Assembly (NCBI GenBank): GCA_018060845.1
Contig: JAGOVG010000004.1
Span: forward strand, 12,118 to 76,117
Reading direction: 5' to 3'
From: Candidatus Woesebacteria bacterium
GTDB taxonomy: Bacteria; Patescibacteriota; Microgenomatia; UBA1400; UBA12108
Length of the DNA stretch: 64,000 nt
In this document: positions 669 to 63,445 of the stretch, one piece after another
How positions within the stretch are numbered: position 1 is the first letter of the stretch
Layout of the letters: each line of letters opens with the position of its first letter
Notes under the pieces: model-generated
What the model was told of the DNA's origin: nothing
The model's database searches: none
What the model saw: only the letters and a program-made list of their open reading frames with translations
Made by a program: the position numbers and the translations under genes

Positions 669-2696
<2,028 letters not shown>

Positions 2697-2748
2697 TTAT
2701 TTCGTAGGGGCGGACCCCTGTGTCCGTCCGAATACACAAGGAGACCAT

Positions 2749-3252
2749 ATGTCAGATCAAAATCCAATGCAAATCAAAGTTTTTATCGAGATCCCAGAAA
2801 ACTCTCGCGTAAAGTACGAGCGAGACGAAGAAACCGGCATGCTCATGGCCGATCGCATCCTTCACACCCCCATGAACTTTCCTTTTAACTACGGTTTTGT
2901 CTTGGGGAGCAAGGGTCAGGATGGTGACCCAACCGACATCGTCCTCTTAGCCTCCGAGCAGTTTGCACCAGGTGTTGGCATCAAAGCACAGCTAATTGGC
3001 ATGCTCGAAATGGAAGACGAAGAGGGGATAGATACCAAACTAATCGCAGTCCCAGTCAAAAAAGTAGACCCCTTGTTTGGCAACTGGATGGATATCACCG
3101 ATGTCCCAGAGCACACCAAGAATAAAATCAAACACTTCTTTGATCACTACAAAGATCTAGAACCCGGCAAATTTGTCAAAACCGGCAAATTCTTAAGCGC
3201 CAAAGAGGCAGCAGCTATATTAGAAGAGGATATGAAAAGAGGAGAAAACTAA
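2749..3252 (+). CDS. ppa: inorganic pyrophosphatase
   Basis: Family I PPase signature (KVFIEIPENSRVKYE…DGDPTDIVLL). AAGGAG RBS 6 nt upstream. Confidence 0.9.
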   Translation: MSDQNPMQIKVFIEIPENSRVKYERDEETGMLMADRILHTPMNFPFNYGFVLGSKGQDGDPTDIVLLASEQFAPGVGIKAQLIGMLEMEDEEGIDTKLIAVPVKKVDPLFGNWMDITDVPEHTKNKIKHFFDHYKDLEPGKFVKTGKFLSAKEAAAILEEDMKRGEN

Positions 3253-11609: not shown

Positions 11610-12598
11610 AGACCTTCGGGGATATCATTCTCGATTAAGACTAGCGGCTCTTTCTTAAGCTTTAGTCCTTTGACTAACGCTACAAACTCCAGAGTCTTAT
11701 CTATTTTTAAGACTTTAACTCTGCCATTTATCGCAACATGCAGCGATCTAGTCCTATCATTATCACCAACCAAGATAGCATAATCTACATTTTCTGCGAT
11801 TACTCTGCCTAGTTCTGTATGTATCTTATCGCTTTCATCCCCCAGCTCTAGTAGCCCTGGTGTCACGATTATTCTCGAATACTTTTTTTGTTTACCTAGA
11901 TGCTTGACCGCTTCCTGCATGCTCTTTTCATTACTGTTGTAACTATCATCAATTACTCGCATACCATAGCGATTTGTCGTAATTTCAAACCTAGATGGGA
12001 CAGCGCGAAAGAGCTTTTCAGACTTCTTAATCTCACTCTCGCTCATCCCTAGTGCTCGCGCAATATCTTTAGCTGCTGCTTTATTTATCTCCTCTCTCGT
12101 CTCACCCTCATACCAGCTAGCATGCGTAACTAACTCTCGTACTGTCTCATCACTTCCATTAGCAACTAGCACCCCGCCAAATTTTGCGATGTATCTCGCA
12201 AGCTCAGTCTTGGCTATTTTTATTTGATCCCATCCTCCAAAGCGAGTTAAGTGTTGCCTGGCAATACCCGTAATTACTCCTACATCAGGCTTTATCCAGC
12301 CCGCAAATCTAGATATTTCTCCCACATGATACGCTCCCACTTCGAGGATCAACACTTCGGTATTATCCATCACTTCATGTCTGAGAGTCTTGGTTATCCC
12401 AACAGCAGTATTGTAATTGCGGCCAGTTAAAACAGTTCGATATTTACGACGCACTAGGTCATAGGTCAGATCTTTGACCGATGTTTTGCCATAGCTACCC
12501 GTAACCATAATCACCTTGGTCCCACGAGCATGTAACTTTTTCATCTCATGCTTGATCCACAAGCCATATAGATAATCTCTTATATCTCTCAGATCCAT
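11606..12598 (-). CDS. murF: Mur ligase family protein, MurF-like (lacks the usual N-terminal domain)
   Basis: Mur ligase P-loop VTGSYGKTS and central/C-terminal Mur ligase domains. Only 330 aa. Convergent with ddl. Confidence 0.55.
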   Translation of the reverse strand: MDLRDIRDYLYGLWIKHEMKKLHARGTKVIMVTGSYGKTSVKDLTYDLVRRKYRTVLTGRNYNTAVGITKTLRHEVMDNTEVLILEVGAYHVGEISRFAGWIKPDVGVITGIARQHLTRFGGWDQIKIAKTELARYIAKFGGVLVANGSDETVRELVTHASWYEGETREEINKAAAKDIARALGMSESEIKKSEKLFRAVPSRFEITTNRYGMRVIDDSYNSNEKSMQEAVKHLGKQKKYSRIIVTPGLLELGDESDKIHTELGRVIAENVDYAILVGDNDRTRSLHVAINGRVKVLKIDKTLEFVALVKGLKLKKEPLVLIENDIPEGL

Positions 12599-13353
12599 AC
12601 TTCCTCCACTATTCGCGATAAGTCACGAAAATGAGTCAGGTGCGGATCGTGTCCTGCCTCCCAAACCACCCTCGCTCTCGCATTCGACAAATGTTTTTTA
12701 TATATCGAGAGTAAGCCTAAGGGGAGGATTGGATCTCGCTCACCCCAGACTACGAGTGTCGAGGATTTAACCTTTGGTAGCTCGTTTGTTAAGTCATACT
12801 TAACCACGGCTTTATACAGGTCCCTGAGTTTAATGTTCTGTCCATCAACATCGCTCACACTTTTCGAAAGAATGTCACGTATTTTCCTTGGCATCAATCT
12901 CGTGATAGTGCGTAGTGGACGCAGAATTATCCGCCTCAATGTCATCGGCTTAACAGCCGCCGGTGCGATCAAGACTAAGCTCTCAACCAGCTCTGGATAC
13001 TTAGCACCCAGCACTACCCCCATCCGTCCACCGAGAGAGTGGCCGACGACACTAGCCTGTTTAATATCGAGATACTTCATCCAGGCAACTAATACTTTTG
13101 TGTAATCATAGATATTAGTAATATTTTGATACATTCCAGTCCCACCAAACCCTGGTAGATCGGGGATCAACACTGTTCTCCCAGTCTTTTCATGTAGGTA
13201 TTTACCCATTATCTCCCACTCAGCGCCGCTGCGTCCCCAGCCATGCAAGATTACAATCGGGACACCGCTACCTTTAATCTCTCGATAATTCCATATCACG
13301 CGATCAACAGCTACTTGCGCCATCAGCTCATTATACAGATTCATATTCGACAA
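12589..13353 (-). CDS. alpha/beta-fold hydrolase
   Basis: HGWGRSG … GHSLGG nucleophile elbow. Overlaps the murF-like start by 10 nt (operon). Confidence 0.6.
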   Translation of the reverse strand: MSNMNLYNELMAQVAVDRVIWNYREIKGSGVPIVILHGWGRSGAEWEIMGKYLHEKTGRTVLIPDLPGFGGTGMYQNITNIYDYTKVLVAWMKYLDIKQASVVGHSLGGRMGVVLGAKYPELVESLVLIAPAAVKPMTLRRIILRPLRTITRLMPRKIRDILSKSVSDVDGQNIKLRDLYKAVVKYDLTNELPKVKSSTLVVWGERDPILPLGLLSIYKKHLSNARARVVWEAGHDPHLTHFRDLSRIVEEVWI

Positions 13354-14982: not shown

Positions 14983-15621
14983 TTGCACATACACACTACA
15001 CGCACATATCTGTTATTAGATATATGTCCTATAAGGCGATATAGTATATATCCTATAGTTAGTAAGCGTATATTCGGAGAAGAGGGGAGATATCAGTTAC
15101 TAACCTTGTCACCATTGTGCGACATTACTCGCGCTCTGTCAACTAAGGTAAAATATGCAGTACAAATAATCATGCTTATGACTAAAGAAATCCCAGTACA
15201 TCAACAGATACAGCCACAGGAATATGTAGATGAAAGATACCACTTAAGTACTGGCGAAGTCATACATGATCCACATCAGCGTGGAATGGTTGGGTGGTTA
15301 GATCAAACCGAATCTGAGCCTGGTTCCGTCAAGACAGCCAAAATGGAGTTGGTTAAAGCCAAGTATGCACTCTACGTATATCCTAAGTTTCGTATATCAG
15401 AATTAAAGGTTGGTTCAGAACTCTTTGAACGACTCCTCCATAGATTAAAAACAAAAAACTATCAGGTCTTAACCATTAATATGGTAACCCCCGAGCTTTA
15501 TGATTTCTATTTAAACAACATGCGTGCCGCAGTAGCACTTGGTCTCGTTAGTAGCTATATTTTAACGCCAGTTAGCTACGACAACGTGTTTAGTCATCAC
15601 AAAGTCCAAATATATCTATAA
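14983..15621 (+). CDS. hypothetical protein (true start possibly near 15172)
   Basis: 212-aa ORF. A TAAAAT -10-like box near 15148 suggests a shorter product starting MLMTKE. Confidence 0.4.
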   Translation: MHIHTTRTYLLLDICPIRRYSIYPIVSKRIFGEEGRYQLLTLSPLCDITRALSTKVKYAVQIIMLMTKEIPVHQQIQPQEYVDERYHLSTGEVIHDPHQRGMVGWLDQTESEPGSVKTAKMELVKAKYALYVYPKFRISELKVGSELFERLLHRLKTKNYQVLTINMVTPELYDFYLNNMRAAVALGLVSSYILTPVSYDNVFSHHKVQIYL

Positions 15622-16225
15622 CCTCAGGGTAAAACGTAGATGCTACCAGAGGTAGAGGCCGTAGAATGGCTTTTAAACTGTCAACACCAGGTCAAATGGG
15701 TAAGCATATGTCCAAAATACGTATATTTTTACGGGTAAGCTTTGGAAAGCAGGAAAACAGGAAGTTAGCATAGGTGGGGGACGAAATAACAATCTAAAAC
15801 GGCAGCAAATCAATTAATTGGTAATTAGTGAATGATAACTGGTAATTAATCTAATAAACTCAGCCCCCTCTCGATTCTTGACTAAGTGTCATAAAAGATA
15901 TATTGTGCGACGCTCAATAGATGACTCCTCCACAGGAGATGCACATCAATAAAAGGGGTTTGAGGCTTCACCTACGATATTCACTACTATCACACAATTA
16001 ACCCTCTATTCACATTGCATCAGTCCGTTAAAGAATTTATCTGCGCTATCCACTATAAAGTCGTCCTGCTCTACTAGCGCTCTAGCACCAGATCTGATAT
16101 CTGGACCCGTAGCTTACCCTACCAGGCTATACCCCTGGGAATGTACGTAACTATATCAAACCATACAAAGTCGTTCACATATCCTACTCGCAAGGATCGG
16201 ATACTTTTTATCCACATTCGTGAAA

Positions 16226-32843: not shown

Positions 32844-34037
32844 TTTCTCCGTCTTTTCATCCCTCCAGACCTCTACCTCCACTTTATCTCCTATTTTCTT
32901 TTTCCCCAGTAGCTCAGCTAACCCGGTACGTCCTGAGCTTGCCGAAGGATCTATTTCACTTAACTTCTTGCCATCAAAACTCACAATAATGTCTCCTTTT
33001 TTAATCCCAGCTGAGTCGGCGCTCGAGTCTTTGACTACCTCGACCACATATCCCCCAGCCGGTACCCCGTTTAGTATCCCCTGCTCTTTCGTAATCGTCT
33101 GGTAGCGTACGCCAAAGAATGGTCTATCAAATGCCCCAGTCTCGTTAAAATTCTTCATAGATTCTTTGACCAGGTTGATCGGCAGTGCAAAACCAATATT
33201 GTTAGCTCCCTGCGAAACCGCCACATTCACCCCAATCACTTGTCCGAGCGAGTTAAGTAGTGGCCCACCAGAATTACCTGGATTAATTGCAGCATCTGTC
33301 TGGATTACATTATCTAGCTTCTCAGCAAAAGAGTACCCATCACCTGCAGTGATCCCTCGACCGAGTCCTGATATAACTCCAGTCGTCACGGTATGGCGAA
33401 ACTCCCCGAGCGCCGTCCCGATCGCAATTACAAAGTTTCCTACCTTTAGCCTGTCCGAGTCACCCATCTCGATCGCTCTATACACCTCTTGCCCTTCCGA
33501 AGCCGTAGGCGAAGGAGGGTCTATTTTTAATATTGCCAAATCATTAGCTGGATCTCGCCAGATCTTCTCGACCTGGTGCTCACTCTCATCCTTTAGCACC
33601 ACTTTGTAGTCACTAGGCGACCCTGATGAGACTACATGCTTGTTGGTAACTACCAGCCCTGCCTCATCTATGACAAATCCGCTCCCGATATCTACCTGCT
33701 CAGACTCTACCTCTCCCGATGGGCGCGACCCGCGGAACATCCCAAATGGGTCGAGGAAATATTGCTCGAGTATCGGTGTCTCTCGCTTAAAAGTGACTGT
33801 GACTACTCCAGCCGATACCTTTTCGGCAACCTCTGTTACCACATTCTCTTCGTTAACAACCCGCTGGTTAATTACCTCGGATGCACCACTTCCACTCCCC
33901 AGATTTAGATTCCTCAAAAATGGCAGCCCCCAGATCTGCTCAGATACTGCCCCGCCAATAAATACGGAAACCAAAAATATCCCCGACATAAGTCCTATGA
34001 CAAAAGTTGACAAGCTCTTACTTTTCATAACAATCAA
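32817..34037 (-). CDS. htrA: HtrA/DegP-family serine protease with PDZ domain
   Basis: N-terminal TM anchor. Trypsin-like catalytic motifs (…VVTNKHVV…, GNSGGPL) and a C-terminal PDZ domain. Confidence 0.85.
   Translation of the reverse strand: MIVMKSKSLSTFVIGLMSGIFLVSVFIGGAVSEQIWGLPFLRNLNLGSGSGASEVINQRVVNEENVVTEVAEKVSAGVVTVTFKRETPILEQYFLDPFGMFRGSRPSGEVESEQVDIGSGFVIDEAGLVVTNKHVVSSGSPSDYKVVLKDESEHQVEKIWRDPANDLAILKIDPPSPTASEGQEVYRAIEMGDSDRLKVGNFVIAIGTALGEFRHTVTTGVISGLGRGITAGDGYSFAEKLDNVIQTDAAINPGNSGGPLLNSLGQVIGVNVAVSQGANNIGFALPINLVKESMKNFNETGAFDRPFFGVRYQTITKEQGILNGVPAGGYVVEVVKDSSADSAGIKKGDIIVSFDGKKLSEIDPSASSGRTGLAELLGKKKIGDKVEVEVWRDEKTEKLSVELRGE
32853..32871. repeat. direct repeat TCTTTTCATCCCTCCAGAC (right copy, inside the htrA 3' coding end)
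   Basis: See 31708..31726. Confidence 0.75.
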
Positions 34038-34103
34038 AATTTACTAAATATCATCGATAATTTCAAGTTCATGATTTTTAATCGTACCTATGACTATGCG
34101 TAT

Positions 34104-34424
34104 TTAGTTTTTTTCCCACAGTTCAATTACTTTAGTACAAGTCTCATTCTTAATTTCTAACACCACAAGTAACGCCTTTAACATCTCAACGTCAACAACA
34201 CCAGCATCTCTAGTATGCATAATGTCTACTTGAAATTTATCCAAACTATCATTACGACTACCCATTGCTAGCTCAAAAAATACTACCAAGTGACTTTTTA
34301 ATACGTCTCTATCACCGTCAAAGTTAGGATAGTTATTCGCAAACTGCAAAATAGTTAGCTCTATTTCTTTATGCTTAGAAATAAGCATAGGATCACCGTT
34401 ATACCACTCAGTATCATTACTCAT
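34104..34424 (-). CDS. hypothetical small protein (AT-rich islet)
   Basis: 106-aa ORF with no family assignment. Confidence 0.35.
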   Translation of the reverse strand: MSNDTEWYNGDPMLISKHKEIELTILQFANNYPNFDGDRDVLKSHLVVFFELAMGSRNDSLDKFQVDIMHTRDAGVVDVEMLKALLVVLEIKNETCTKVIELWEKN

Positions 34425-34475
34425 AAATATTCGAAGTGTATACCATGTTTATTATCATGTCTGCGGCCAAAATAC

Positions 34476-34793
34476 TTAGAGTGATATTGTTCTTATCTTC
34501 CCAATAGATGCATACTTTCTGAGTAATACTTCATAATTAGCATTGATTCCACTACTACTATTAGCAGCAATACCATTGACTACATCATCTACGCTGAGAA
34601 CTATGTCTAACATCTCAGCTATATAGCTAGGATCTGCTGAACCAGATATGTATGTGATCAATAAAGGTTTAAAACCTACAATTCCTAATGTCTCAAAATT
34701 AGCATCAGGGCTATCATCTCCTACATCAACCACTACCCGTTTCTGTCCATCCGTGCTTTTAAAAACAGTACCAAATTCAATAGACGTCATCAA
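34476..34793 (-). CDS. hypothetical small protein (AT-rich islet)
   Basis: 105-aa ORF with no family assignment. Confidence 0.35.
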   Translation of the reverse strand: MMTSIEFGTVFKSTDGQKRVVVDVGDDSPDANFETLGIVGFKPLLITYISGSADPSYIAEMLDIVLSVDDVVNGIAANSSSGINANYEVLLRKYASIGKIRTISL

Positions 34794-34827
34794 AATATTT
34801 TCTCACACCCGTCAACCTAAAGAAATA

Positions 34828-36069
34828 TTAGAAAGACTCTAGCGCCTTATTTAGCTGCTCATCCACTTCTGTCTCGTCCTCTTTTGCAAGTATATCTTCC
34901 ACTACCACATCTGGCGTTACCCCTTTTTCGCCGATCCAGGATCCTGATGGGAGTATCCACTTGGCAACAGTCACATGCAAGCTCGATCCATCAGATAGGT
35001 CCTGCACTTCCTGCACCGTCCCCTTGCCAAAACTCTGCTCACCCACTATCTTAGCCCGTTTATTGTCCTGCAGCGCTCCTGCCACGATCTCAGAGGCCGA
35101 GGCAGATCCTTTGTTAACCAGAACAACTAGTGGGATCTTGATCAGGCTCCCGTTACGATTAACACTATATGTCTCTCCATCATTTCTACCTTCTTGCTTA
35201 ACTATCACTCCATTCTCCAAAAACTCACTCGCCACATATACCGCTCCATCCAGATATCCTCCTGGGTTATTACGAAGGTCCAAAACTACTCCTGCAGGCC
35301 TCTTAGCTATGATCTCGGCCACCTTTTCGCTCCATTCCCGGTCAGTCCTACCCCCAAAACGATGAAGCTCTAGGTGCGCATAGCTCTTCCCTGCTTTTTC
35401 GACATATGCTAGTTCGACCGATGGTACCACGATCTCATCACGAGTTAGAGTTAGGTCAAAAGATTTTGTAACACCCTCACGATAAATAGTCAGGATAACA
35501 TCTGTCCCCTTATCACCCCTGATATGAGACACGGCTGTCGGTAGACTCATCCCTCTGGTATCCAGGTCTACCCCCTTTTTCTCGTCTTTGATATGTAAGA
35601 TAAAATCGCCTGCTTTTACCCCAGCTCGCTCCGCAGGCGAGTTGGCAATCGGCGCTATTGCAGTTAGTGTCTGCTCTTTGTACCCTAGCTCTATCCCAAC
35701 GCCATAAAACGTTCCGTTCAGATCTTCATTTGCTGCTTTGTTCTCTTTGGGTGGCAGATATTGGGTATAGGGGTCCCCTAGTGACTGGGCTAGTCCTGCC
35801 ATGGCTCCCCAGGTCATCTGCGCATAATCGAGCTTACTCGGATCTACATAAGACTTCTCTAATCTCTTCCACACTTCCCAGAACTTGCCAAAATCAGCTG
35901 CATCTACTGCTTCGCCATTTGGCGTCTCAACAAATCTCTTAACAACATTTGGTGCAGCCGAGCGGCCACTGCGCCAGTCAGAGACCTGGTAACCTGCCGC
36001 AAAGACTAGGACGGCTAGCGCCAAAGTCACAAAAAAATTGCGCAATCCACGATAAGTCAGCTTAACCAT
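34828..36069 (-). CDS. ctpA: carboxyl-terminal processing protease (S41 family)
   Basis: N-terminal TM anchor, PDZ domain, and the S41 catalytic region GSASASEIVAGALQD…GKGTVQ. Confidence 0.85.
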   Translation of the reverse strand: MVKLTYRGLRNFFVTLALAVLVFAAGYQVSDWRSGRSAAPNVVKRFVETPNGEAVDAADFGKFWEVWKRLEKSYVDPSKLDYAQMTWGAMAGLAQSLGDPYTQYLPPKENKAANEDLNGTFYGVGIELGYKEQTLTAIAPIANSPAERAGVKAGDFILHIKDEKKGVDLDTRGMSLPTAVSHIRGDKGTDVILTIYREGVTKSFDLTLTRDEIVVPSVELAYVEKAGKSYAHLELHRFGGRTDREWSEKVAEIIAKRPAGVVLDLRNNPGGYLDGAVYVASEFLENGVIVKQEGRNDGETYSVNRNGSLIKIPLVVLVNKGSASASEIVAGALQDNKRAKIVGEQSFGKGTVQEVQDLSDGSSLHVTVAKWILPSGSWIGEKGVTPDVVVEDILAKEDETEVDEQLNKALESF

Positions 36070-38510: not shown

Positions 38511-39089
38511 TCATTCATTTCTTTCATTCTCAATTTCTCTTCCCAAAACCTTATCTTCTAGACATTCCATCATGAGTTCCCACAAATAATAACTACTCGA
38601 TCCTGTACCATGCGCGTCATATGCCTCGGATACTGGATCCATCACATCTTCGAAGGTTTTATTTTTACCAAAACCTAGCATTACTCCGTGTCCATATTTT
38701 TGTATTGTCCTCAACAGCTTAACCATGTTACCTAGTTTCTGGTCAGTCTCTAAATTATCAACAAATGATGAAGTAAGAAATGTATCAAAATTTCTAGCTA
38801 TTAGATATTTTCCGCTCTGACTCCACGCTGTTGGATCCCAATCAACTATTCCTGTTAATTTTTCTAAGTCTGCTTGGGTCGGTAAATCGTTAAAATCTAC
38901 TGTTAATATTTCTTTATCAGTTATTTTTGAAATCGATTCAATAAATGTAGGTGTTAAATATTGATCGCTATGCAAAGCTAGTGCACATCTTCCTAAATTC
39001 ACTTGATGGACAGCATATGCTCTATCCTTGGTTGGCTCAAAACCAGCAGCTAAGAGTTCTTGAATGACAATCTCGTGGTTAGTTTGCAT
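38511..39089 (-). CDS. hypothetical protein (AT-rich island)
   Basis: 192-aa ORF with no motif recognised. Confidence 0.4.
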   Translation of the reverse strand: MQTNHEIVIQELLAAGFEPTKDRAYAVHQVNLGRCALALHSDQYLTPTFIESISKITDKEILTVDFNDLPTQADLEKLTGIVDWDPTAWSQSGKYLIARNFDTFLTSSFVDNLETDQKLGNMVKLLRTIQKYGHGVMLGFGKNKTFEDVMDPVSEAYDAHGTGSSSYYLWELMMECLEDKVLGREIENERNE

Positions 39090-39264
39090 ATGAGTATTCT
39101 ATCAAATCAGGTACTCTAGATACTACTATTCGGCCAAGTGAATCACGCAACGCAATAAATCGTTCTTTACGTAGCTTAGGTAAAACAAATTGAAATTGGA
39201 ATTCTAAGAATGGTACTGTAAATCTGGCGTTCCTACAGATAAAGACATGACATGATTTTATCAT
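39079..39264 (-). CDS. small hypothetical ORF
   Basis: 61-aa ORF. Weak evidence. Confidence 0.2.
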   Translation of the reverse strand: MIKSCHVFICRNARFTVPFLEFQFQFVLPKLRKERFIALRDSLGRIVVSRVPDLIEYSYAN

Positions 39265-39285
39265 GCATATCCTCTATCAGGATTA

Positions 39286-39723
39286 TTATTGTTTTTTTCT
39301 ACTATTATTTACAACATGAATTGCAACATCAACCATTCCCTTCAATCCTCTCATTCCAATACCTAACTCGAACCCTGTAATATACCCAGCTAGAGACAGG
39401 TTTAAAACATCTGGGTTATTCATTGCTGTAGTAGTAATGGGTGATGTTAACAAAACGAGTGTTGGAGGTAGTAAAAATACTGCTAAAGAGAGCAATGCTT
39501 CAGCCATTATATTATCTACACCAGTAGACGTTTCGTCATATGCATCTTCAACTAAATGAGGTTTAACAGCAGATATAGTTCGATCAGCAACGTACGCTCC
39601 AGAAAACATGCCTAAAAACAAAGACGTTATTGGTGCATATTTCAATAGGTCATGAAAGTTTTCTAAACGACTCATGGCAACTAGACTATAGCATATTTCT
39701 GATAAAATATACCTATGGGACAT
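39286..39723 (-). CDS. hypothetical membrane protein
   Basis: 145 aa with hydrophobic segments. Its start overlaps the divergent 39715 ORF start. Confidence 0.35.
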   Translation of the reverse strand: MSHRYILSEICYSLVAMSRLENFHDLLKYAPITSLFLGMFSGAYVADRTISAVKPHLVEDAYDETSTGVDNIMAEALLSLAVFLLPPTLVLLTSPITTTAMNNPDVLNLSLAGYITGFELGIGMRGLKGMVDVAIHVVNNSRKKQ

Positions 39724-40182
39724 CCTATTAAAGATAATCTTATAGCCTTAGGTTTAGGCGCATCTTCTATCATAGGGATTGGTAGCGACGTTGTTTCACA
39801 GAGTCCTTACAGAGAACTATTGCCAGATATCTACCAAGAGCAAGCAGGCAATTTCGGCATACCATGGTGTTTAGGAGTGATCATCAATTTAACTGGCAGA
39901 TTTCTAGAACTACGAGGAAACAATGAAAATAGTCAGGATACTCTAGAGCTTGGTCAAAAAATCAGAAACTACGGCAATGTATTCATAATCGGTGTGTTGT
40001 TTGGAGTCGAAGGACAGTTTATTAATAACATAGAACTACTAAAAGAAAATTCACTCGATTTCGCTATGGGCATTCTCGCAATCACAATTGGGATTAGTGC
40101 TGGAAAGAAAATAGCAGAAGCAGTAATGGGCCAGTCAAATACAAATTCCAGCCCTCCAAGTTCTTCAATAAATACACGATAA
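39715..40182 (+). CDS. hypothetical protein with Gly-rich hydrophobic segments
   Basis: 155-aa ORF, divergent from 39286..39723. Confidence 0.35.
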   Translation: MGHPIKDNLIALGLGASSIIGIGSDVVSQSPYRELLPDIYQEQAGNFGIPWCLGVIINLTGRFLELRGNNENSQDTLELGQKIRNYGNVFIIGVLFGVEGQFINNIELLKENSLDFAMGILAITIGISAGKKIAEAVMGQSNTNSSPPSSSINTR

Positions 40183-51600: not shown

Positions 51601-52092
51601 TTATATTTTCAGAACCTCTGCAACAACGTCATTAATATTTCTAGTAGCATCCACTCTTTTTACTTCAAAACTCGGCTCTTCAAACATCTCATATATTTCC
51701 ATCGCAAATTCAGGAGTTAAGATGTGACCAGGTCGATCTACTCGTTGCTTTAAAGTTTCAGAGTCAGTAGTGAGGTAAACCCATCTCAGAGAAGGAATCA
51801 TCTTGTATAACTGCAACCTATATCTATCCAACATAAAGTCGTAGGACATTACAAATTTGTTGTGCTTCTCTGTCAAATATGAAACTCTCTCAAAAATTGC
51901 TTCGTGCTGTCTGTCTCTCAGTTCTGGAGTTAGTCCTTTATTATTGCGATTTAGTTCTATTACTTCTGGCAACAAGTCATCATCTGCTTCGTAATAATGG
52001 TACCCAAAATTCTGCATTAACTTAGCTACACTAGTCTTACCTACCCCTGGAGTACCGAATAATATTACCCAATCAGATTCTTGTTTACCCAT
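51601..52092 (-). CDS. P-loop kinase, gluconokinase/shikimate-kinase-like (AAA_33-type)
   Basis: Walker A LFGTPGVGKTS, followed by the EADDDL… pattern seen in GntK-family kinases. Confidence 0.5.
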   Translation of the reverse strand: MGKQESDWVILFGTPGVGKTSVAKLMQNFGYHYYEADDDLLPEVIELNRNNKGLTPELRDRQHEAIFERVSYLTEKHNKFVMSYDFMLDRYRLQLYKMIPSLRWVYLTTDSETLKQRVDRPGHILTPEFAMEIYEMFEEPSFEVKRVDATRNINDVVAEVLKI

Positions 52093-52312
52093 TTAGGTAT
52101 TGTTTGGCAACTATTAATAGTACAAGAATAATCAAAGAATACAATAGGGTTTTGGTAAGATCCTTAACCACATAATGGCTCGATAGATATCCAAATTCGT
52201 TGCGATCTTTTTCGATCTGTTTCTCTTTGATCTTAAGACTAAAGTTCTGCAGTCTGTATGCAGATTTAACTTTTTCTTCCCGTGTCTTTTGCCTACTCAT
52301 ATTATTCAACAC
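52085..52312 (-). CDS. small TM protein
   Basis: 75 aa with a C-terminal TM helix. Overlaps neighbours by a few nt (operon). Confidence 0.3.
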   Translation of the reverse strand: MLNNMSRQKTREEKVKSAYRLQNFSLKIKEKQIEKDRNEFGYLSSHYVVKDLTKTLLYSLIILVLLIVAKQYLNG

Positions 52313-52320
52313 ACCTTAAC

Positions 52321-52890
52321 TCAATTGGAATCTTTGTATTCTCCATTATTATTCATATCTTCTTCGATTAATCTTCTTAAGTAGACAGCTCTAGGTATCC
52401 TCCTATTTTTGGAAATCCAGTCTAGATAAGTACCAATATTTGGAGATATGAAGAAATTAAACCTCACATCCTGGGCAGAGGCAACATAGTCAAGTCCACT
52501 ACTTAATACAGACTCTAAATCAGAATTTTTATATGACAACAGTGTGAGGCGCTCATCAATTCTACCTTGGAGAAACAATGGCTCTCTATCTTCGTGATAT
52601 AAAGCTACGACTGGCTTACCTATATCGAGGGCATAGGTCAAGATATGTCCAACATTGGCCGTAGAGGGATATGATATCTCGATTACTACAAAATCTGCAC
52701 TTTTTACATTGTTTAGAACTTCTCTATACCACGCTTCACGTTTATTTGCCGTAACATCACCTTTGTCATCATTAAATAAACTACCACTAAAAACCTTATG
52801 GCCTGCCTTAATTAGTAATTCATTAATTTTGCTGTAATAAATTCCTAAGTCAGACTTTTGAGTATGTGATGCTATAAATACTACTTTCAT
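52321..52890 (-). CDS. nucleoside 2-deoxyribosyltransferase-like Rossmann-fold protein
   Basis: MKVVFIASH…ADFVVIEISYPSTANVGHILTYALDIGKPVVAL resembles the NDT fold, but with His where the catalytic Glu is expected. Confidence 0.4.
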   Translation of the reverse strand: MKVVFIASHTQKSDLGIYYSKINELLIKAGHKVFSGSLFNDDKGDVTANKREAWYREVLNNVKSADFVVIEISYPSTANVGHILTYALDIGKPVVALYHEDREPLFLQGRIDERLTLLSYKNSDLESVLSSGLDYVASAQDVRFNFFISPNIGTYLDWISKNRRIPRAVYLRRLIEEDMNNNGEYKDSN

Positions 52891-53405
52891 AAAGTTTTAC
52901 ACTCCTTATATTTACTGAACTTAGATATTATTCTATCATCATGCAACTCATCATTTACAAAATCATCATGCTGAACGCTTGGGAGCTCAAATAAACTCCA
53001 CACATACTCAAAAGCATTCTCATCTATAATATGATCTAGATTTTTTATGCGATCCATGACCCTATTATGTGCAAGGGTTTTTGGGGCATGTACTAACACA
53101 AACTTCACTTGATTATCAAATCTATGTAGAAAATCTATCCTATTCTTGTCCTTAGCAAATGCTTGAGCTACTACTAGGACTTCGTCGTTCTTTAGTTTTG
53201 TTAGTATGTTTTCAACAGTACTAGACAACTTCTCAAAAAATTTATCTCTCATGTCATCACTATAATTACCCGATCGTATAGAGCGTCGATATTCATCATC
53301 AAACAGCACATCAGCATCAAAGAAATGCATTGATAGTTTCGACTCTAATACACCACCTATGTACGTTTTACCAACACCAGGTGGTCCAAACAGAACTATT
53401 ATCAT
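52887..53405 (-). CDS. P-loop kinase, gluconokinase-like
   Basis: Walker A LFGPPGVGKTY, then FFDADVL…DD…R and LVVAQAF…R pattern similar to GntK/IdnK. Confidence 0.55.
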   Translation of the reverse strand: MIIVLFGPPGVGKTYIGGVLESKLSMHFFDADVLFDDEYRRSIRSGNYSDDMRDKFFEKLSSTVENILTKLKNDEVLVVAQAFAKDKNRIDFLHRFDNQVKFVLVHAPKTLAHNRVMDRIKNLDHIIDENAFEYVWSLFELPSVQHDDFVNDELHDDRIISKFSKYKECKTL

Positions 53406-56460: not shown

Positions 56461-56489
56461 AAATCTCAAATTCTCAAATTCTCAAATTT
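56461..56489. repeat. AAATCTCAAATTCTCAAATTCTCAAATTT: inverted copy of the TTTGAGAATT repeat, downstream flank of cassette 2
   Basis: Three tandem AAATTCTCA units. The last 8 codons and stop of the four-helix-bundle gene are encoded by this repeat. Confidence 0.7.
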
Positions 56490-56840
56490 AGAAGATCCAA
56501 ATTTAATTTTCTTAATAATGGCACTAAGTATTAATGTTATTTCTCTGACTTCCTTTCTCAGGTCTGAATTATCTATACCTAAGACCTCCTCAGATATTCT
56601 CAGCCAATAACTAGTTTCTTTAGCTTCCTTTTTTGCTATAGAAAATCTATGGATAAATTCAGCTTTAGATTCAGACCCGTCTGCTTCTTGAGCATTAGCG
56701 CCTATAGATGTAGCAGATCTAATTAGTTGTTTAGCAATAACACTAGCCTCGAGAGTTTTAGGAAATTTTCGAATATATAGTATTGTGTTTACTGCAAATT
56801 TATAGATTCTCTCGTATATATCACGCTTGCTCTGATCCAT
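56466..56840 (-). CDS. four-helix-bundle protein, 23S rRNA IVS protein family (divergent paralog)
   Basis: …QLIRSATSIGANAQEADGSESKAEFIHRFSIAKKEAKETSYWLRI… matches the TIGR02436-type signature. Confidence 0.75.
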   Translation of the reverse strand: MDQSKRDIYERIYKFAVNTILYIRKFPKTLEASVIAKQLIRSATSIGANAQEADGSESKAEFIHRFSIAKKEAKETSYWLRISEEVLGIDNSDLRKEVREITLILSAIIKKIKFGSSKFENLRI

Positions 56841-57526: not shown

Positions 57527-58372
57527 TTAAAACACCTCCTTAACGAGACTCACCACCTCTTGTAAAGCGAGGTTGGTAGGGTCTTTAGGACTCGATTTGT
57601 CTGACCCATTGAGTAGCATCTGTTTAGACGGATGCAAAAACCATTGGTCAGGTCGATCGTGCTCTAGTATTTTATCATAAAGTACCGTTAGATCGATGTT
57701 TTTCTCTGGTACTGCTTTAATTCGCATATGCCCGTAGTCTGGGTGTTTGAGGATGACCAAGGTAAAACCCTGTTTTTGGGCGATCTTTATCACTTCGCTA
57801 TTGGCAGATAGGATTGCAATTCCCTTCCCCACTGCCCAGCTAAATTCTTCGCCTGTTTTAATCTCCTCTTCCGCTTTAACTACCTGTTTAAGTCGCTGGT
57901 ACACCCCATCTAGATATAAGAAAACGTATCTTGCCACTGCCTCGTTATCGATGACGCCCAGTGAATGTAGAGGTGGGATAACCTCGTGTAAGGTGTAGGC
58001 GTAGCGGACCGCCAGTGGCTCATCCCAGCCTGAGTCTTCAAACCGGTCTATCGAGAGCGCAAATTCAGTCATTTGTCTCAGTGCGGTATCGCTAGGTGGT
58101 ACTAGTCCCTGCGCTACCAAATGTTCATACACTAGCTTTGAACCGCAGGTTGTATATCCACCTGGCATATGATGATCAAAGCGGCCAAAGCCAACGTCAA
58201 CATGCACCACATCAGGATCAGAGTCGACTGGGAGGTTTTTGTAGGTCGTACTCGCCGGGATAAACTCTAAGTGCGCATCACCATAATGGGACTGATCAAA
58301 ACGAATAAATAGCCACAGCGACGTAATCGCATCAAGATCTGGGTTTTTGTGGGTAACGAGAGTCTTTGTCAT
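57527..58372 (-). CDS. DHH-family phosphoesterase (NrnA-like)
   Basis: …HKNPDLDAITS… and …VDVGFGRFDHH… DHH motifs. Probable start at the MTKTLVTH Met (58372); the track extends it to 58453. Confidence 0.5.
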   Translation of the reverse strand: MTKTLVTHKNPDLDAITSLWLFIRFDQSHYGDAHLEFIPASTTYKNLPVDSDPDVVHVDVGFGRFDHHMPGGYTTCGSKLVYEHLVAQGLVPPSDTALRQMTEFALSIDRFEDSGWDEPLAVRYAYTLHEVIPPLHSLGVIDNEAVARYVFLYLDGVYQRLKQVVKAEEEIKTGEEFSWAVGKGIAILSANSEVIKIAQKQGFTLVILKHPDYGHMRIKAVPEKNIDLTVLYDKILEHDRPDQWFLHPSKQMLLNGSDKSSPKDPTNLALQEVVSLVKEVF

Positions 58373-58391
58373 AATAATATTGTAGCATTGA

Positions 58392-59480
58392 CTAGTAGAG
58401 ATACTCTTCAACTTCCCAATCAAATCTCCCAATCCCAAGCATTTTAGCCACATTACCTAATGCACTCATAGACATGTCATATTTATCCCCCATAGTTGAA
58501 TGGATCAACACATTTAACTCACTAATGTCTAGAGGGGAATCCAAGTTTTCAAATACTTTATATTTAGCAACTATTTCATTAAAGAAAGGAAAAACAGCAT
58601 GCATATCAAAAGCAATAACTAAGTTTGTAAACAATTTTGGGTTGATTAAAAAGCTCGCCATCATTCTCTGTCTGAACTCTCTAATGTCTTGTTCATCTAC
58701 TACTACTCGCTTTATATAATCTGGAATGCATTGAGCTAATGATAGAAATTGATGCATTTCAGCAACTCCCACATCAGGCATCCAGTCACCTGCCGGGTGG
58801 ATATTCACAAAATGTATGCCTCTTACCAAGTTCAAAATGTATCTACTCATATAAACCATCAACTCGCCTGGTTCATCCCCTACTAGGTCATAATTTGGCA
58901 TTTCCTCTCTAAGTAAGTGTTTATTGGTAACCAACAGTCCCGAAGTAGTATCAACATGCTTATCATCAGGGGTTAGTGCTATTTGCTGGAGTCTGTTTGT
59001 CCTGCCAGGTTCAGTAGTATATCTGCGATCTTTTGCCAGTTCAGGACTAATATGTATTTTGGTAGCGATGTCCGCTCCATTTCGAGCTGTAATTGTTATC
59101 ACTTTACTGAGTCTCTCATCTTCCGGACGAGACGGGCAACCTTGGACGACCTCTAGATCGAGATCGTCTAGATCCAAATCTCTCAAAAAATGTTCAACCT
59201 CATCTTTAGTTGGAGGCTTGCAGTGAATAGATTTCAGATCACTATTTAATGCCTCATGCCTAGTAAAGTCGACAAAACTGGCAGCTACTCTTTCCCATCG
59301 ATTATCTGATGATTCTAAGATACGAGGGTCATCACCCAGCTGCAAGATCATAGTCTTTGTGTTCGTTAGTTCCTCGACTCTTTTTGAGTCGACCAGTCCT
59401 CTTATTGACTCGCCACCCACACTGATCAGTCCCCAGTGTTGACGAACTATTGCTGGTAATTGCTCTACTGAGACTGCCAT
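58392..59480 (-). CDS. hypothetical protein, co-transcribed with the upstream wHTH protein
   Basis: 362-aa ORF, AT-rich. Its start overlaps the upstream gene's stop by 16 nt. Confidence 0.45.
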   Translation of the reverse strand: MAVSVEQLPAIVRQHWGLISVGGESIRGLVDSKRVEELTNTKTMILQLGDDPRILESSDNRWERVAASFVDFTRHEALNSDLKSIHCKPPTKDEVEHFLRDLDLDDLDLEVVQGCPSRPEDERLSKVITITARNGADIATKIHISPELAKDRRYTTEPGRTNRLQQIALTPDDKHVDTTSGLLVTNKHLLREEMPNYDLVGDEPGELMVYMSRYILNLVRGIHFVNIHPAGDWMPDVGVAEMHQFLSLAQCIPDYIKRVVVDEQDIREFRQRMMASFLINPKLFTNLVIAFDMHAVFPFFNEIVAKYKVFENLDSPLDISELNVLIHSTMGDKYDMSMSALGNVAKMLGIGRFDWEVEEYLY

Positions 59481-60598
59481 ATCAATCCTTGTCCTCGCTT
59501 TGTTATGAGGTGCTTACTACTAATACCTAGATCAGTTAGACGCTGTCTAAGTCTATTTACCTGACTATCTAGCGCCCAGTCGCTCCCTAACGTACTATCA
59601 CCCCAAAGAGCATCGATTAAGTCTTCTCTTTTTACAAATGTTCCTGGCGATGCAAGGACTAGTTTTAGTATTTGTTTTTGCTTGCCCGTAAACTTGTCAG
59701 AATAATTTGCTCCTCCTATCAATATCATCTCTTCGCTAGCCTTCACTTCTAGCGGGTTCCCAACATACTTTTTTATGTATTCGGCTAGTAATGGGACTTT
59801 TGTGTATCCCATATCGTTAATATATTTATCGACCATCACGCTCTCTTCCCCGATTCGTGTACCATAAATACGATCAGTCATAATTTTTCGTTCATTGATG
59901 TTGAGTTTGTGCCAGATAGCTCTTAATTGCCAGATCACTTCGTGAGATTCCAAAACAACTTTGTAATCGGGATCTTTCTGGTCTCTCAACTTCCACATCA
60001 CTGATTTGATCAGTCTCAACGATGGTCCGACCGCATGCACAATTTCTGCTATCAACTCTGGCTTAAGATTCATTTTCCACTTTATAGATAGGTATATCGC
60101 AAACTCAACTGCTAATTTTTCATCATAAAATCCATGTATAACTACACTTGGTTCAAAACTAGGAATACTCAACAAAAAATTCTCAAACTGAGGATCATAG
60201 TAATTAGCCTCGCAAACCAATAATAATTTAGTTCTCTGGTTTCTATAAATATCTTGTAACGCAATAATTAAATCTGACCTTCGATCAGCAAGTATACTCT
60301 CAAACCCTAAGAGGCAAATCAAATTGTCATCTGTCTTAGTGTCTAAAATACTACGAATCATCTCTCCAGCCGTACTCCATCGCTCAATACGATAGTCAAC
60401 GATTCTTAATGATAGTTTGGTTGATCCAACTGCTTTTTGTATGAACCTGATATTCTCTAATAGCTGTTCAAACCTACGAATAATATCGCTACTAGGGTAA
60501 GTTACTATCATGCATGGCTCGCCATACCTGAGGGGAGCAAGCCAATAACTCCACATTTCTTCAATGTTTGATGGTTTCCAGTATGAACTAGTTTTCAT
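59465..60598 (-). CDS. atypical OmpR/PhoB-type winged-helix DNA-binding protein (C-terminal wHTH, no receiver domain)
   Basis: C-terminal …REDLIDALWGDSTLGSDWALDSQVNRLRQRLTDLGISSKHLITKRGQGLIW matches the trans_reg_C wHTH. The 280-aa N-terminal region has no REC or Walker motifs. Confidence 0.55.
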   Translation of the reverse strand: MKTSSYWKPSNIEEMWSYWLAPLRYGEPCMIVTYPSSDIIRRFEQLLENIRFIQKAVGSTKLSLRIVDYRIERWSTAGEMIRSILDTKTDDNLICLLGFESILADRRSDLIIALQDIYRNQRTKLLLVCEANYYDPQFENFLLSIPSFEPSVVIHGFYDEKLAVEFAIYLSIKWKMNLKPELIAEIVHAVGPSLRLIKSVMWKLRDQKDPDYKVVLESHEVIWQLRAIWHKLNINERKIMTDRIYGTRIGEESVMVDKYINDMGYTKVPLLAEYIKKYVGNPLEVKASEEMILIGGANYSDKFTGKQKQILKLVLASPGTFVKREDLIDALWGDSTLGSDWALDSQVNRLRQRLTDLGISSKHLITKRGQGLIWQSQ

Positions 60599-60616
60599 CC
60601 TATAATTATACTCCGC

Positions 60617-60642
60617 CTGTCAATCTTTCAATAGATTAACAG
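60617..60642. promoter_or_regulatory. imperfect palindrome CTGTCAATCT-TTCAAT-AGATTAACAG in a divergent promoter region
   Basis: 10-bp arms (9/10 complementary) separated by 6 bp. Lies between the divergent 59465..60598 and 60711..61427 genes. Confidence 0.5.
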
Positions 60643-60710
60643 GTAACGTGACAAGCTAAAAAGAGATTTGCACTATAAGATACACCAAAATATTAGATAG
60701 GAGCCCATTT

Positions 60711-61427
60711 ATGAGTAAATACGAATACCTTGATGCCTTATCAAACACCATCACGGATCCAGAAAAACTTAGACTGTTGCTTGATATTCCAGAGAGTGTC
60801 TTAGCTATAGCCGCTAGTAAGTTCCATATCAGCGAAGAGGAAGGAATAAAGCTAGATCGCTACCCACTCGCACGCATTGTGAGAGTGATCAACTATAATC
60901 ATTTAGTAGATTATGCTTCCAAGGAGCATAAAATATGGCAAAGAACAGAAGAGAAGTTTTGTAGTAACCCTAACTTTATCCCATTTTCTAAGTTATCTGA
61001 CAGTGATAGGGTGCTAAGAATGGTCAAAACTGAAGTACCATCAGGTCAGATGAATCCTATTTACGACTCTCTAAGTATTGAGGGTATCGGAGTTATTCCA
61101 AGAAGCAAAAATAGAGTCGAGCTTTTAGCTAGACATCATCAATACGGAGAGTATCCTCACCCCGGCTTCAGTCATCGTACAAGCATAGATCCATTCGATA
61201 GTAAAAAATATAAAATACCTAGTGCTGTAACAGTGGGAGAGTTAAAAAAATATGACACCAGTCATTCTATACTACGTTCTCTTGCTCATGATTTAGAAGT
61301 AATGAGAGGTGGTAAACAAGAGAATATAGAAAAAGATATCGATCTCTCAAATTATGAATTTTACTTCGCTATGCCTTTGTTCAATATAGCTATCGATTAC
61401 TGTGAAGTAGCGCTCACAATTAAATAA
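60711..61427 (+). CDS. hypothetical protein
   Basis: 238-aa ORF, AT-rich, with no motif recognised. Confidence 0.4.
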   Translation: MSKYEYLDALSNTITDPEKLRLLLDIPESVLAIAASKFHISEEEGIKLDRYPLARIVRVINYNHLVDYASKEHKIWQRTEEKFCSNPNFIPFSKLSDSDRVLRMVKTEVPSGQMNPIYDSLSIEGIGVIPRSKNRVELLARHHQYGEYPHPGFSHRTSIDPFDSKKYKIPSAVTVGELKKYDTSHSILRSLAHDLEVMRGGKQENIEKDIDLSNYEFYFAMPLFNIAIDYCEVALTIK

Positions 61428-61443
61428 TTAGGTAGAACTTATA

Positions 61444-61995
61444 ATGAATAAAACAGAAATTGTTTTTCAATCACAAGCCGAGTTAATAAATTTCGTCGGA
61501 GGAGAGAACCTTCTAATTTCAAGAATGCTATCAGATCATCCAGCTATATCGAGCGAACCAAGAATATCATTAACCAGCACCTTAGTTACTCTGTTAAGCG
61601 AAGACTTGATCAGAGCTGACGAGCAATGTGCACTAGAACTATCGATTCAAAAATTCCGTGAGCTATCTTTAGTCAATATCCCATCTAGAGCAGAAGACAT
61701 TCACCAATATTTATATCCAGATAGTGAGACATCATTACAAGACACTAAAACTTTAATAGAATTATTATCAAAAGCAGCATTAATCACATATAAGGATAAG
61801 GGATATCATCTTGATACAGGTATTAGACGTCTAGCGCTAGTTGAGTATGAGTTAACCCAACCAGAACAATATGCTCATAGTCACATAAGCCTACTAATCA
61901 CAGCAATAGATTTACAAACTAGATATCCGGAAGCCAGTAGTTGGTATGATAATATGCTACCCGATATTGAGATTAAACAATTTACTAATAGGTAA
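61444..61995 (+). CDS. hypothetical protein
   Basis: 183-aa ORF, 16 nt after the previous stop (operon). Confidence 0.4.
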   Translation: MNKTEIVFQSQAELINFVGGENLLISRMLSDHPAISSEPRISLTSTLVTLLSEDLIRADEQCALELSIQKFRELSLVNIPSRAEDIHQYLYPDSETSLQDTKTLIELLSKAALITYKDKGYHLDTGIRRLALVEYELTQPEQYAHSHISLLITAIDLQTRYPEASSWYDNMLPDIEIKQFTNR

Positions 61996-63029: not shown

Positions 63030-63100
63030 ATCAGACAATCAGAATACTCAGATAATCGGTTGGTCAGATAGTCAGATTATCAGAATCTATCAGATCTCCA
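63030..63100. repeat. downstream flank of cassette 3: run of seven TCAGA(N) units incl. CAGATTATCAG
   Basis: ATCAGACAATCAGAATACTCAGATAATCGG…TCAGATAGTCAGATTATCAGAATCTATCAGATC. Its reverse complement resembles the cassette 1 downstream flank with C/T changes. Confidence 0.6.
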
Positions 63101-63445
63101 TATACTATGTAATTTGTTTATCCTTTTTGACAAAAGCTTATACAGATTTGCCAATTCTACTATTTCAGACTGTAATCGTGTCACTGCATAATATACCGTT
63201 CGAAAGTGGGTTACAACTTCATCACTCGACCCAATAGCTATCTTTAAAAATCGCTTAAATTCTTTTTCCGAAGATCTTTTAGCAAACCCTTCTGCAATAT
63301 TTGCAGATACTGATTTAGCAGCGCGCCTTAGCTGACTGATCGTATCCATCTCAGATTTTGGAAATTTCCGAAGCAAAGTATATAGTTTAGCTATTAGCTT
63401 TAATGATTCGTTATATACATCCAAGTCAGTGACATCTCGTATCAT
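63080..63445 (-). CDS. four-helix-bundle protein, 23S rRNA IVS protein family (close paralog of 50681..51046)
   Basis: …SVSANIAEGFAKRSSEKEFKRFLKIAIGSSDEVVTHFRT… Nucleotide sequence is diverged from copy 1 but the protein is conserved. Confidence 0.75.
   Translation of the reverse strand: MIRDVTDLDVYNESLKLIAKLYTLLRKFPKSEMDTISQLRRAAKSVSANIAEGFAKRSSEKEFKRFLKIAIGSSDEVVTHFRTVYYAVTRLQSEIVELANLYKLLSKRINKLHSIWRSDRF

Follow-up and report, generated by a model that had tools for sequence, protein, structure and literature searches.

An exchangeable gene pair at a fixed chromosomal hotspot in Woesebacteria, coding for a winged helix protein with a predicted P-loop-less STAND-like module and a putative nucleotidyltransferase-fold partner

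The four-gene island and its setting

The subject of this analysis is a four-gene island (58392-61995) in a 64-kb stretch of a contig from Candidatus Woesebacteria, a lineage of the candidate phyla radiation (CPR); hereinafter, the whole of that stretch is termed the window. CPR bacteria have tiny, streamlined genomes, in which systems for defence or conflict are believed to be scarce. The island consists of four open reading frames (ORFs), all of which lie where an earlier note on this DNA had placed them: two on the minus strand, coding for p362 (58392-59480; 362 amino acids, aa) and p377 (59465-60598; 377 aa), and two on the plus strand, coding for p238 (60711-61427; 238 aa) and p183 (61444-61995; 183 aa). 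The 16-nt stop/start overlap claimed for the p377 and p362 genes is real (59465-59480), with the p362 ATG being preceded at 5 nt by a Shine-Dalgarno sequence, AAGGA, inside the end of the p377 gene. An overlap of 10-16 nt is retained across all types of the cassette described below.

The AT-richness reported for the island is borne out by its composition: the GC content of 58454-61984 is 0.380 as compared to 0.445 for the window, the lowest value among all 3.5-kb segments of the 64 kb, with the flanking DHH-like and yvcK genes standing at 0.456 and 0.458, respectively. The cassette genes are likewise low in GC content and in GC content at third codon positions (GC3) in all seven loci compared. 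The statement that none of the four proteins has a recognizable family stands outside the DNA-binding domain of p377, whose C-terminus is a Trans_reg_C domain; other than this, there is no significant match for any of them in Pfam, NCBIfam, PADLOC or PHROGs, and the defence models of PADLOC-DB v2 recover no family for the four proteins at E ≤ 1. No Rfam family was found within 56-64 kb of the window, and a scan for sigma-70 promoters and terminators showed no enrichment.

On its downstream side the cassette is bounded by a 19-nt spacer (58373..58391, assigned to neither strand) between the p362 stop and the start of a DHH-like gene (ATG 58370-58372). The start of the latter most likely lies at 58372, giving a protein of 281 aa that begins with MTKTLVTH and has the length seen in all relatives; hence, there is no overlap between the DHH-like and p362 genes but rather this short spacer. 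No terminator-like site was found in the spacer, for which reason transcription of the pair probably reads through into the operon DHH-rpsU-yqeY-ybeY-dnaX. In one cassette type (locus L019), an extra 130-aa orphan gene lies on the opposite strand (4555-4947, minus) between the p362 homolog and the DHH-like gene, and in this type such read-through would be interrupted.

An accessory cassette in a housekeeping operon

We are highly confident that these genes constitute an accessory, exchangeable cassette at one fixed chromosomal hotspot in a subclade of Woesebacteria. The hotspot is the short spacer that leads from yvcK (or rseP) to the DHH-like-rpsU-yqeY-ybeY-dnaX operon. Scanning metagenomes with a profile built from the neighboring DHH-like protein recovered 80 loci. 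Among those with enough upstream sequence, at least 40 related loci run from rseP or yvcK directly into the DHH-like gene and lack the cassette, while ten distinct related loci, in addition to the window, carry it at exactly this site. The empty junction consists of the yvcK stop, 9 nt and the DHH ATG in three loci (L014, L017 and L046), and in L037 the two genes abut. In L014, the DHH-like protein is 95% identical to that of the window and the cassette is absent. In the tree of DHH-like proteins, the carriers are confined to one major clade, where they are interspersed with non-carriers. Every homolog of the pair that could be placed on a contig shows the same arrangement, namely rpsB-tsf-rseP-(yvcK), divergent small genes, the winged helix-turn-helix (wHTH) gene, the 362-aa gene, the DHH-like gene and rpsU-yqeY-ybeY-dnaX-ybaB-recR.

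The L014 junction also retains the last 34 codons of yvcK/cofD (4887-4988; 65% identity, E 3e-10) directly upstream of the DHH-like gene, most of yvcK having been lost there independently of the cassette question. We considered whether this fragment is the scar of a cassette deletion and rejected the idea: with the DHH-like gene following 9 nt on, it represents an empty-site allele combined with a separate truncation of yvcK.

The alleles at the filled sites can be far more divergent than the genes around them. Loci L002 and L013 share 95% identity in the DHH-like protein, 41% in p377 and 29% in p362; L004 and L006 likewise share 95%, 41% and 26%. Conversely, L003 and L004 are only 52% identical in the DHH-like protein, with 61% and 52% identity in p377 and p362. 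Over 45 locus pairs the identity of p377 is uncorrelated with that of the DHH-like protein (Spearman rho 0.01), but closely tracks that of p362 (rho 0.81, p 1e-11). At the nucleotide level, the flanks align with about 88% identity, breaking off at the stop codon of rseP (or yvcK) and setting in again about 15 nt ahead of the DHH start codon; between these breakpoints the only similarity is a block of about 176 nt covering the promoter of the pair and the first codons of p377. In the L006/L004 and L013/L002 alignments the breakpoint on the DHH side maps to the 19-nt spacer. Thus, the earlier proposal of a horizontally exchangeable accessory module, as opposed to core genes, is upheld by the empty sites, by divergent alleles between flanks of about 88% identity and by the sharp edges. 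The route of exchange was most likely homologous recombination in the conserved flanks; no target-site duplications or flanking repeats were seen at the cassette edges, and every cassette lacks an integrase, relaxase or other mobile-element gene.

Synonymous divergence (dS) between the window and L001, which carries the same cassette type with 81-87% identity in p377 and p362, is 0.35 for p377 and 0.57 for p362, with 0.39-0.57 in the flanks. The corresponding ratios of nonsynonymous to synonymous divergence (dN/dS) are 0.20 and 0.18 as compared to 0.04-0.10 in the flanks; purifying selection thus acts on the pair, with a constraint two to five times looser than that on its flanks, and marks its genes as functional. 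The two genes form a co-evolving, translationally coupled core unit. The view of the island as a single four-gene unit applies to this core pair only: p238 swaps independently of it, and p183 has no detectable homolog in the related loci fetched. Gene-neighborhood conservation, which the earlier note had proposed to examine, follows the same division, with the order of p377 and p362 being kept at the one site in carriers and the slots of p238 and p183 varying.

Could the pair instead be a vertically inherited, fast-evolving housekeeping pair specific to this lineage? The same position and gene order in all carriers and the equality of dS between the pair and its flanks in the window/L001 comparison would fit such an origin, and six syntenic loci had suggested it. 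It is contradicted, and in our judgment left with almost no credibility, by the lack of correlation with DHH identity, by flanks of 95% identity that enclose pairs of 26-41%, by the sharp nucleotide breakpoints and by the empty-site alleles in sister lineages; accordingly, we abandoned it after the metagenome scan.

Beyond this subclade the two families are hardly represented. The family of p377, which is itself identical to an NCBI entry derived from a metagenome-assembled genome of Candidatus Woesebacteria, has 11 clusters among 5.8 billion proteins; that of p362 has 8 clusters, and a profile search for it finds 12 representatives among 1.84 billion. No relative of p362 or of the whole of p377 was found in 185,579 GTDB species representatives. 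The sole p377 match there, from Paenibacillus (L007), was rejected as an ordinary response regulator that is similar only in its wHTH domain. Viral contigs contain no relatives of either protein. This narrow distribution, in one Woesebacteria subclade, limits the general impact of the finding. It nevertheless establishes that even tiny CPR genomes keep a fast-turnover accessory locus, namely a recombination hotspot inside a housekeeping operon, with breakpoints defined precisely enough for population studies, and it brings to light two new families outside known sequence families.

p377, a wHTH protein with a predicted degenerate AAA+/STAND module

The p377 protein (59465..60598, minus strand) is predicted to combine a P-loop-less AAA+/STAND-like module (residues ~25-280) with a C-terminal OmpR/PhoB winged helix (residues 283-377). 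The latter had been recognized in the earlier note, and it is firmly supported by the match of residues 303-371 (59486..59692, minus strand) to Pfam Trans_reg_C (PF00486; E 2.9e-12, 46.9 bits against a cutoff of 26.2). Conservation within the protein peaks in the segment of its recognition helix, DWALDSQVNRLR: when seven cassette types are compared, residues 341-350 (DWALDSQVNR) have a mean pairwise identity of 0.84, as compared to 0.13-0.60 for the other ten-residue blocks. The absence of a receiver domain is likewise confirmed, there being no Response_reg hit and the fold of the N-terminal region being of the AAA+/STAND-like rather than the flavodoxin-like CheY type; matches to NCBIfam response-regulator models cover the C-terminal domain only and fall far under their cutoffs. 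By these sequence criteria, p377 is not a two-component response regulator, and it differs from the OmpR/PhoB response regulators in lacking both a receiver domain and a partner kinase nearby.

The N-terminal region, which had been taken for a novel domain, appears instead to be an AAA+/STAND-type module with a degenerate P-loop. In an AlphaFold model built with 11 sequences (predicted local distance difference test score, pLDDT, 86), it adopts an AAA+/STAND core fold, with five parallel strands in an α/β arrangement followed by a helical lid (core and lid: residues ~25-210, 59969..60526, minus strand). Matches of this fold include the Arch_ATPase-like proteins 2qen and 2fna and NB-ARC proteins. 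The claim that Walker motifs are missing holds for Walker A, with a GK[ST] motif being absent from all 11 members. At the position of Walker A the family has T-Y-P-G/S-S-D-x-x-R-R, the stretch from Y onward coming after strand 1 (MIVT), and the residues P35, D38, R41 and R42 do not vary. The end of strand 3 is L-L-G-F-E rather than hhhhDE, with G98 and a Walker-B-like E100 being invariant, and a sensor-1-like asparagine, N132, following strand 4 is nearly so (90% or more). Further invariant residues are C129, E130 and an arginine of the lid, R205.

Regulators with a STAND/AAA+ module and a DNA-binding domain include the MalT/LAL proteins and the SARP-NB-ARC proteins (AfsR). As in the STAND/Arch_ATPase-type AAA+ regulators (2qen PABY2304, 2fna SSO1545), p377 would unite the fold of a nucleotide-binding domain with helical and winged-helix domains and a DNA-binding output. 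It is set apart from them by the lack of Walker A, by its small size (377 aa), by the lack of a repeat sensor domain and by its C-terminal OmpR/PhoB wHTH output; MalT/LAL regulators use a LuxR-type HTH, and the SARPs carry their OmpR-type domain N-terminally. We know of no described example of a P-loop-less STAND-like module and OmpR wHTH next to a fold like that of CCA-adding enzymes without the canonical catalytic aspartates.

In two loci the p377 homolog is split into two ORFs (L002, 8001-9132, 327+58 aa; L010, 6901-8010, 121+246 aa), and the twin contig of the latter, L011, has an intact homolog of 369 aa; the split versions could be assembly errors or an early stage of decay.

p362, a putative nucleotidyltransferase-fold partner

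The translationally coupled partner, p362 (58392..59480, minus strand), is a candidate effector for which we predict, with moderate confidence, a fold of the Pol-β/class II CCA-adding-enzyme-like nucleotidyltransferase (NTase) type. Its structural model, built with eight sequences, has a pLDDT of 80.7. A Foldseek search of the PDB with this model gave nothing significant; six of the first seven distinct proteins were Pol-β NTases (TENT5, cGAS and TglT/MenT3). Sequence and profile searches of the PDB gave no match for p362, and PolyA_pol (PF01743) matches none of eight members even at E ≤ 10. Against a profile of CCA-adding enzymes and poly(A) polymerases (PAPs), built from three PDB sequences together with cca and pcnB of E. 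coli, the p362 family attains an hhalign probability of 0.8%, and against Cca and PcnB alone 0.3%. The alignment is colinear but non-significant, for which reason we claim homology only at the level of the fold. In this non-significant alignment, V-G-G of p362, with the nearly invariant G22, stands opposite the LVGG of motif A in Cca/PcnB, DRR opposite the RRD of motif B, DG..VD..TG opposite yG.iiDpfgG of the flexible-loop region, and SRYxLNxVRG opposite EDxxRxLRAxRF.

Relative to class II CCA-adding enzymes and bacterial PAPs, p362 lacks the two metal-binding aspartates (DxD) after GG, has about 45 extra residues at this point, and is an accessory, hypervariable gene rather than a housekeeping one. 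The available candidates for the aspartates are poorly kept: at D31, 6 of the 14 members having the region carry G, S or P instead, and D51 is lost in distant members. Across 15 members, with identities as low as 23%, twelve residues never change, namely E76, D81, P146, D151, R153, R213, N217, E268, P281, F284, F297 and N343, and these point to a constrained ligand or active site. Judging from these patterns, p362 may be catalytically dead or may use other carboxylates, with the invariant E76, D81 and D151 as candidates.

If p362 were an active, non-canonical NTase, it might make a signal for which the P-loop-less AAA+ module of p377 is the receptor, a logic like that of the cyclic-oligonucleotide-based antiphage signaling systems (CBASS) or oligoadenylate synthase (OAS) with a transcriptional output. 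The predicted Pol-β NTase fold and the weaker matches that it gives to cGAS, DncV, CD-NTases and OAS would suit such a second-messenger module, as would the three invariant carboxylates together with the invariant arginines of p362, the invariant R41/R42 of p377, which stand in place of the Walker lysine and could contact phosphates, and the DHH-family phosphoesterase encoded directly downstream. However, p362 is without the canonical catalytic motif, and the DHH-like gene is core in all relatives with or without the cassette and hence lies outside the module. We accordingly regard this arrangement as improbable.

The conserved promoter block and predicted autoregulation

The pair is preceded by a 58-bp promoter/operator block (60599..60656, minus strand), which reads GCTTGTCA-N8-CTGTTAA-N~12-TTGACAG-N6-TATAAT-N6-ATG in the window and has the consensus GCTTGnCA-N8-CTGTCAA-N-TGAMAGRTTGACAG-N6-TAnAAT-N6-ATG on the p377 coding strand. 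Hexamers of the CTGTCA/TGACAG type recur in it, both as direct and as inverted copies, and a TATAAT resembling a −10 element (60605-60610) ends 6 nt before the p377 ATG. The block is kept in every cassette type, those with proteins of 23-33% identity included; beyond the six-locus alignment, this extends to L011 and L013, the types that diverge most. It is the sole nucleotide similarity left between divergent cassette alleles. Each of the 10 cassette loci covering the region has exactly one copy of a 22-nt pattern taken from the block, TTGACAG-N6-TANAATTAT, invariably just ahead of the gene for the p377 homolog, while 83 other loci have no copy.

The imperfect palindrome that the earlier note had described in this region (60617..60642; CTGTCAATCT-TTCAAT-AGATTAACAG) is present, with 9 of 10 arm positions complementary, though on its own it is only modestly unusual, as shuffling the 112-bp spacer 5000 times yields an equally good inverted repeat in 184 cases (3.7%). 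The CTGTCAATCT-N6-AGATTAACAG element falls inside the strongly conserved block and is the window's version of its arrangement: an inverted repeat lies at the same offset, with other arm sequences, in L001, L004 and L006, but not in L002 and L003.

While the p362 and p238 genes each have a properly spaced Shine-Dalgarno sequence, the p377 gene has none. Together with the TATAAT 6 nt before the ATG, this suggests that the mRNA of the p377/p362 pair is probably leaderless. A conserved recognition helix combined with conserved hexamers over the −35 region is the pattern expected of an autoregulator and its operator, and we consider it reasonably probable that p377 autoregulates the pair by binding the block. 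In this scheme, p377 would recognize the CTGTCA/TGACAG repeats, which overlap the pair's own promoter. As operator and recognition helix are both invariant, DNA binding is easy to check.

Repeated TTGACAG-type hexamers beside TATAATTAT, directly upstream of a gene for an initiator-like protein, could also be read as iterons or an origin, with p377 as an Orc1/Cdc6- or DnaA-like initiator left over from a mobile replicon. Such a provenance is very improbable: the better matches of p377 are the Arch_ATPase-like 2qen/2fna and NB-ARC proteins, Walker A is missing, none of the cassettes contains a mobile-element gene of the kinds listed above, viral contigs have no relatives, there is no turn in GC skew at the site, and the pair is always chromosomal and always at the one site.

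Since the cassette splits a compact operon and brings along divergently oriented genes, its promoter probably also supplies the essential genes downstream. This raises the question of whether such a supply is its main role. In that case, p377 would be a ligand-responsive transcription factor and p362 a non-catalytic nucleotide- or RNA-binding co-sensor, the two setting the expression of DHH-rpsU-yqeY-ybeY-dnaX-ybaB-recR with no toxin involved. The co-directional placement of the cassette 19 nt upstream of the DHH-like gene with no terminator, the interruption of what would otherwise be a 9-nt yvcK-DHH junction, whence the downstream genes need the cassette promoter, and the status of the promoter block as the most conserved part of the cassette all agree with this. 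So do the lack of a metal-binding DxD in p362 and the prominence of DRR and SRYxLNxVRG as its most conserved motifs, which align with nucleotide-pocket motifs of CCA-adding enzymes by the non-significant hhalign alignment and our own reading. On the other hand, one would not expect the regulator of an essential housekeeping operon to be dispensable, as the pair is in the at least 40 related loci without it, nor to have alleles 26-41% identical between flanks of 95% identity, and when a wider regulon was looked for, the 14-nt operator motif had no second copy in the 64-kb window. This purely regulatory role is possible, though we think it unlikely; if it applied, the cassette would be a rare swappable regulator in front of essential genes.

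Potential function and relationship to known systems

The reading that we tentatively favour is of an autoregulated conflict cassette comparable to AbiE and MenAT. AbiE is a bicistronic operon, in which the wHTH antitoxin is encoded first and autoregulates via inverted repeats, and the second gene codes for a Pol-β NTase toxin (PMC3985639, PMC7319586). The p377/p362 pair is similarly an overlapping bicistron with a DNA-binding protein first and a protein of the predicted Pol-β-superfamily NTase fold second; like AbiEi, which acts through inverted repeats (PMC3985639, PMC7319586), it has repeats, inverted copies included, in its own promoter. Its distribution is also patchy, exchangeable and fast-diverging in the manner of these systems, and a true AbiEii gene occupies the same hotspot in L003. 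We posit that p377, being encoded first, might repress the operon and restrain its partner, and that p362 might be the effector, acting on a nucleotide or an RNA 3′ end, with tRNA as the obvious candidate. The cassette promoter would probably also transcribe the essential genes downstream. The toxin-antitoxin or abortive infection (Abi)-like logic at the heart of this reading is conceivable but far from assured; were it correct, NTase-toxin systems would extend to a new structural lineage.

Several observations weigh against this proposal. Direct repeats spaced by 10-11 bp are the usual targets of OmpR-family domains; the hexamers here, unlike these, include inverted copies and spacings of 8 bp and 31 bp, and the conservation of the block could simply reflect the need of the essential operon downstream for a strong promoter. 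Genes for toxin-antitoxin systems and defence typically occur in many contexts, whereas all known copies of the pair are at one locus in one clade. Neither p377 nor p362 has a match to Pfam AbiEi, AbiEii or DUF1814 or to PADLOC. Furthermore, p377 is far larger than the known AbiEi/MenA antitoxins, with a C-terminal, OmpR-type wHTH rather than an N-terminal one, and in place of the C-terminal domain of AbiEi it has the predicted ~280-aa degenerate AAA+/STAND module. Finally, the Pol-β NTase signature hG[GS]x9-13(15)DhD with its third carboxylate (PMC3985639) is wanting in its canonical form in p362, there being no conserved DxD after the near-invariant VGG. The pair may thus work like AbiE/MenAT, but is not a member of that family.

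At the level of genomic organization, the closest comparison is with defence or accessory hotspots of core genomes, such as the core defence hotspots of Pseudomonas aeruginosa (PMC10250203). The likeness lies in a fixed site flanked by conserved core genes, which may be empty, filled or taken up by unrelated alleles, and which has a low GC content and sharply defined breakpoints. The present hotspot differs in that its host is a CPR bacterium with an ultra-small genome, in its position within a compact housekeeping operon with a 9-nt spacer, and in that one gene pair recurs in many divergent versions rather than unrelated systems alternating at the site.

The several strands can be joined into a more specific picture, which we regard as distinctly doubtful: a CPR-specific conflict system, in which an NTase-fold effector derived from a CCA-adding enzyme acts on or senses tRNA or RNA 3′ ends and is checked by a pseudo-STAND OmpR-type factor, and which, by inserting into the 9-nt spacer of an essential operon, has captured the promoter function for rpsU-ybeY-dnaX. 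Were this so, the state of the cassette would be tied directly to the expression of ribosome and replication genes, amounting to addiction by promoter capture. Pressure from phages or competitors would drive the diversification of the surfaces used for sensing and for effector action, with the wHTH and operator remaining fixed.

The companion genes p238 and p183

The orphan protein p238 (60711..61427, plus strand) is encoded divergently from the pair, which it accompanies in most cassette types, and is exchanged independently of it. It has no family or PDB match. Its homologs are 52% identical in L001, 46% in L002, 32% in L003, 34% in L004/5 and 26% in L013, and in L006, L011 and L019 it is replaced by unrelated genes. 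Between the window and L001, p238 shows a dS of 1.7 and a dN/dS of 0.23; this dS and its 52% identity, set against the 81-87% of the pair, indicate that it was swapped independently. In L011, the divergent arm (2929-3846, minus strand) codes not for a member of the p238 family but for a 305-aa protein with a methyltransferase domain of the S-adenosylmethionine-dependent type (PF08241, E 9e-5).

The p183 ORF (61444..61995, plus strand) is an orphan in the variable slot of the hotspot, with a GC3 of 0.25 and a 3′ end that overlaps the 3′ end of yvcK by 11 nt. It has no family or PDB match, and no homolog was detected in the related loci fetched. Elsewhere its slot holds unrelated genes of 161 aa or 79 aa, an 84-aa gene with AbiEii, or nothing. 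The AbiEii gene, in the L003 slot (2050-2980, minus strand), is a bona fide toxin gene of this family (PF08843); the 84-aa gene that lies just upstream and overlaps it may encode a short antitoxin.

Neighboring genes and further variable sites

The DHH-like protein itself is very divergent, matching Pfam DHH only at E 0.01 and having no PDB or NCBIfam match, and retains the H-x3-D-x-D and DHH motifs. The longest ORF in the window (57527-58453, minus strand; 308 aa) overstates the gene relative to the conserved length of 281 aa. It is a conserved core gene in both major clades sampled, with 34-96% identity.

Two genes of the 23S rRNA-intervening-sequence-type four-helix bundle family (PF05635) are wedged between core genes on the minus strand of the window, one between yqeY and ybeY (56466-56840; GC 0.325) and the other between rseP and yvcK (63080-63445; GC 0.350). 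Their absence from these positions in most relatives gives them the look of additional small insertions. In L001, a 513-aa ORF with no Pfam hit (11689-13230; GC 0.37) follows yqeY where relatives have ybeY/dnaX, and may mark another variable insertion point in the same operon. Other 1-kb segments of the window with a GC content of 0.35-0.39 against the background of 0.445, at about 15001-16000, 34001-35000, 39001-40000 and 52001-53000, may likewise represent accessory or fast-evolving insertions.

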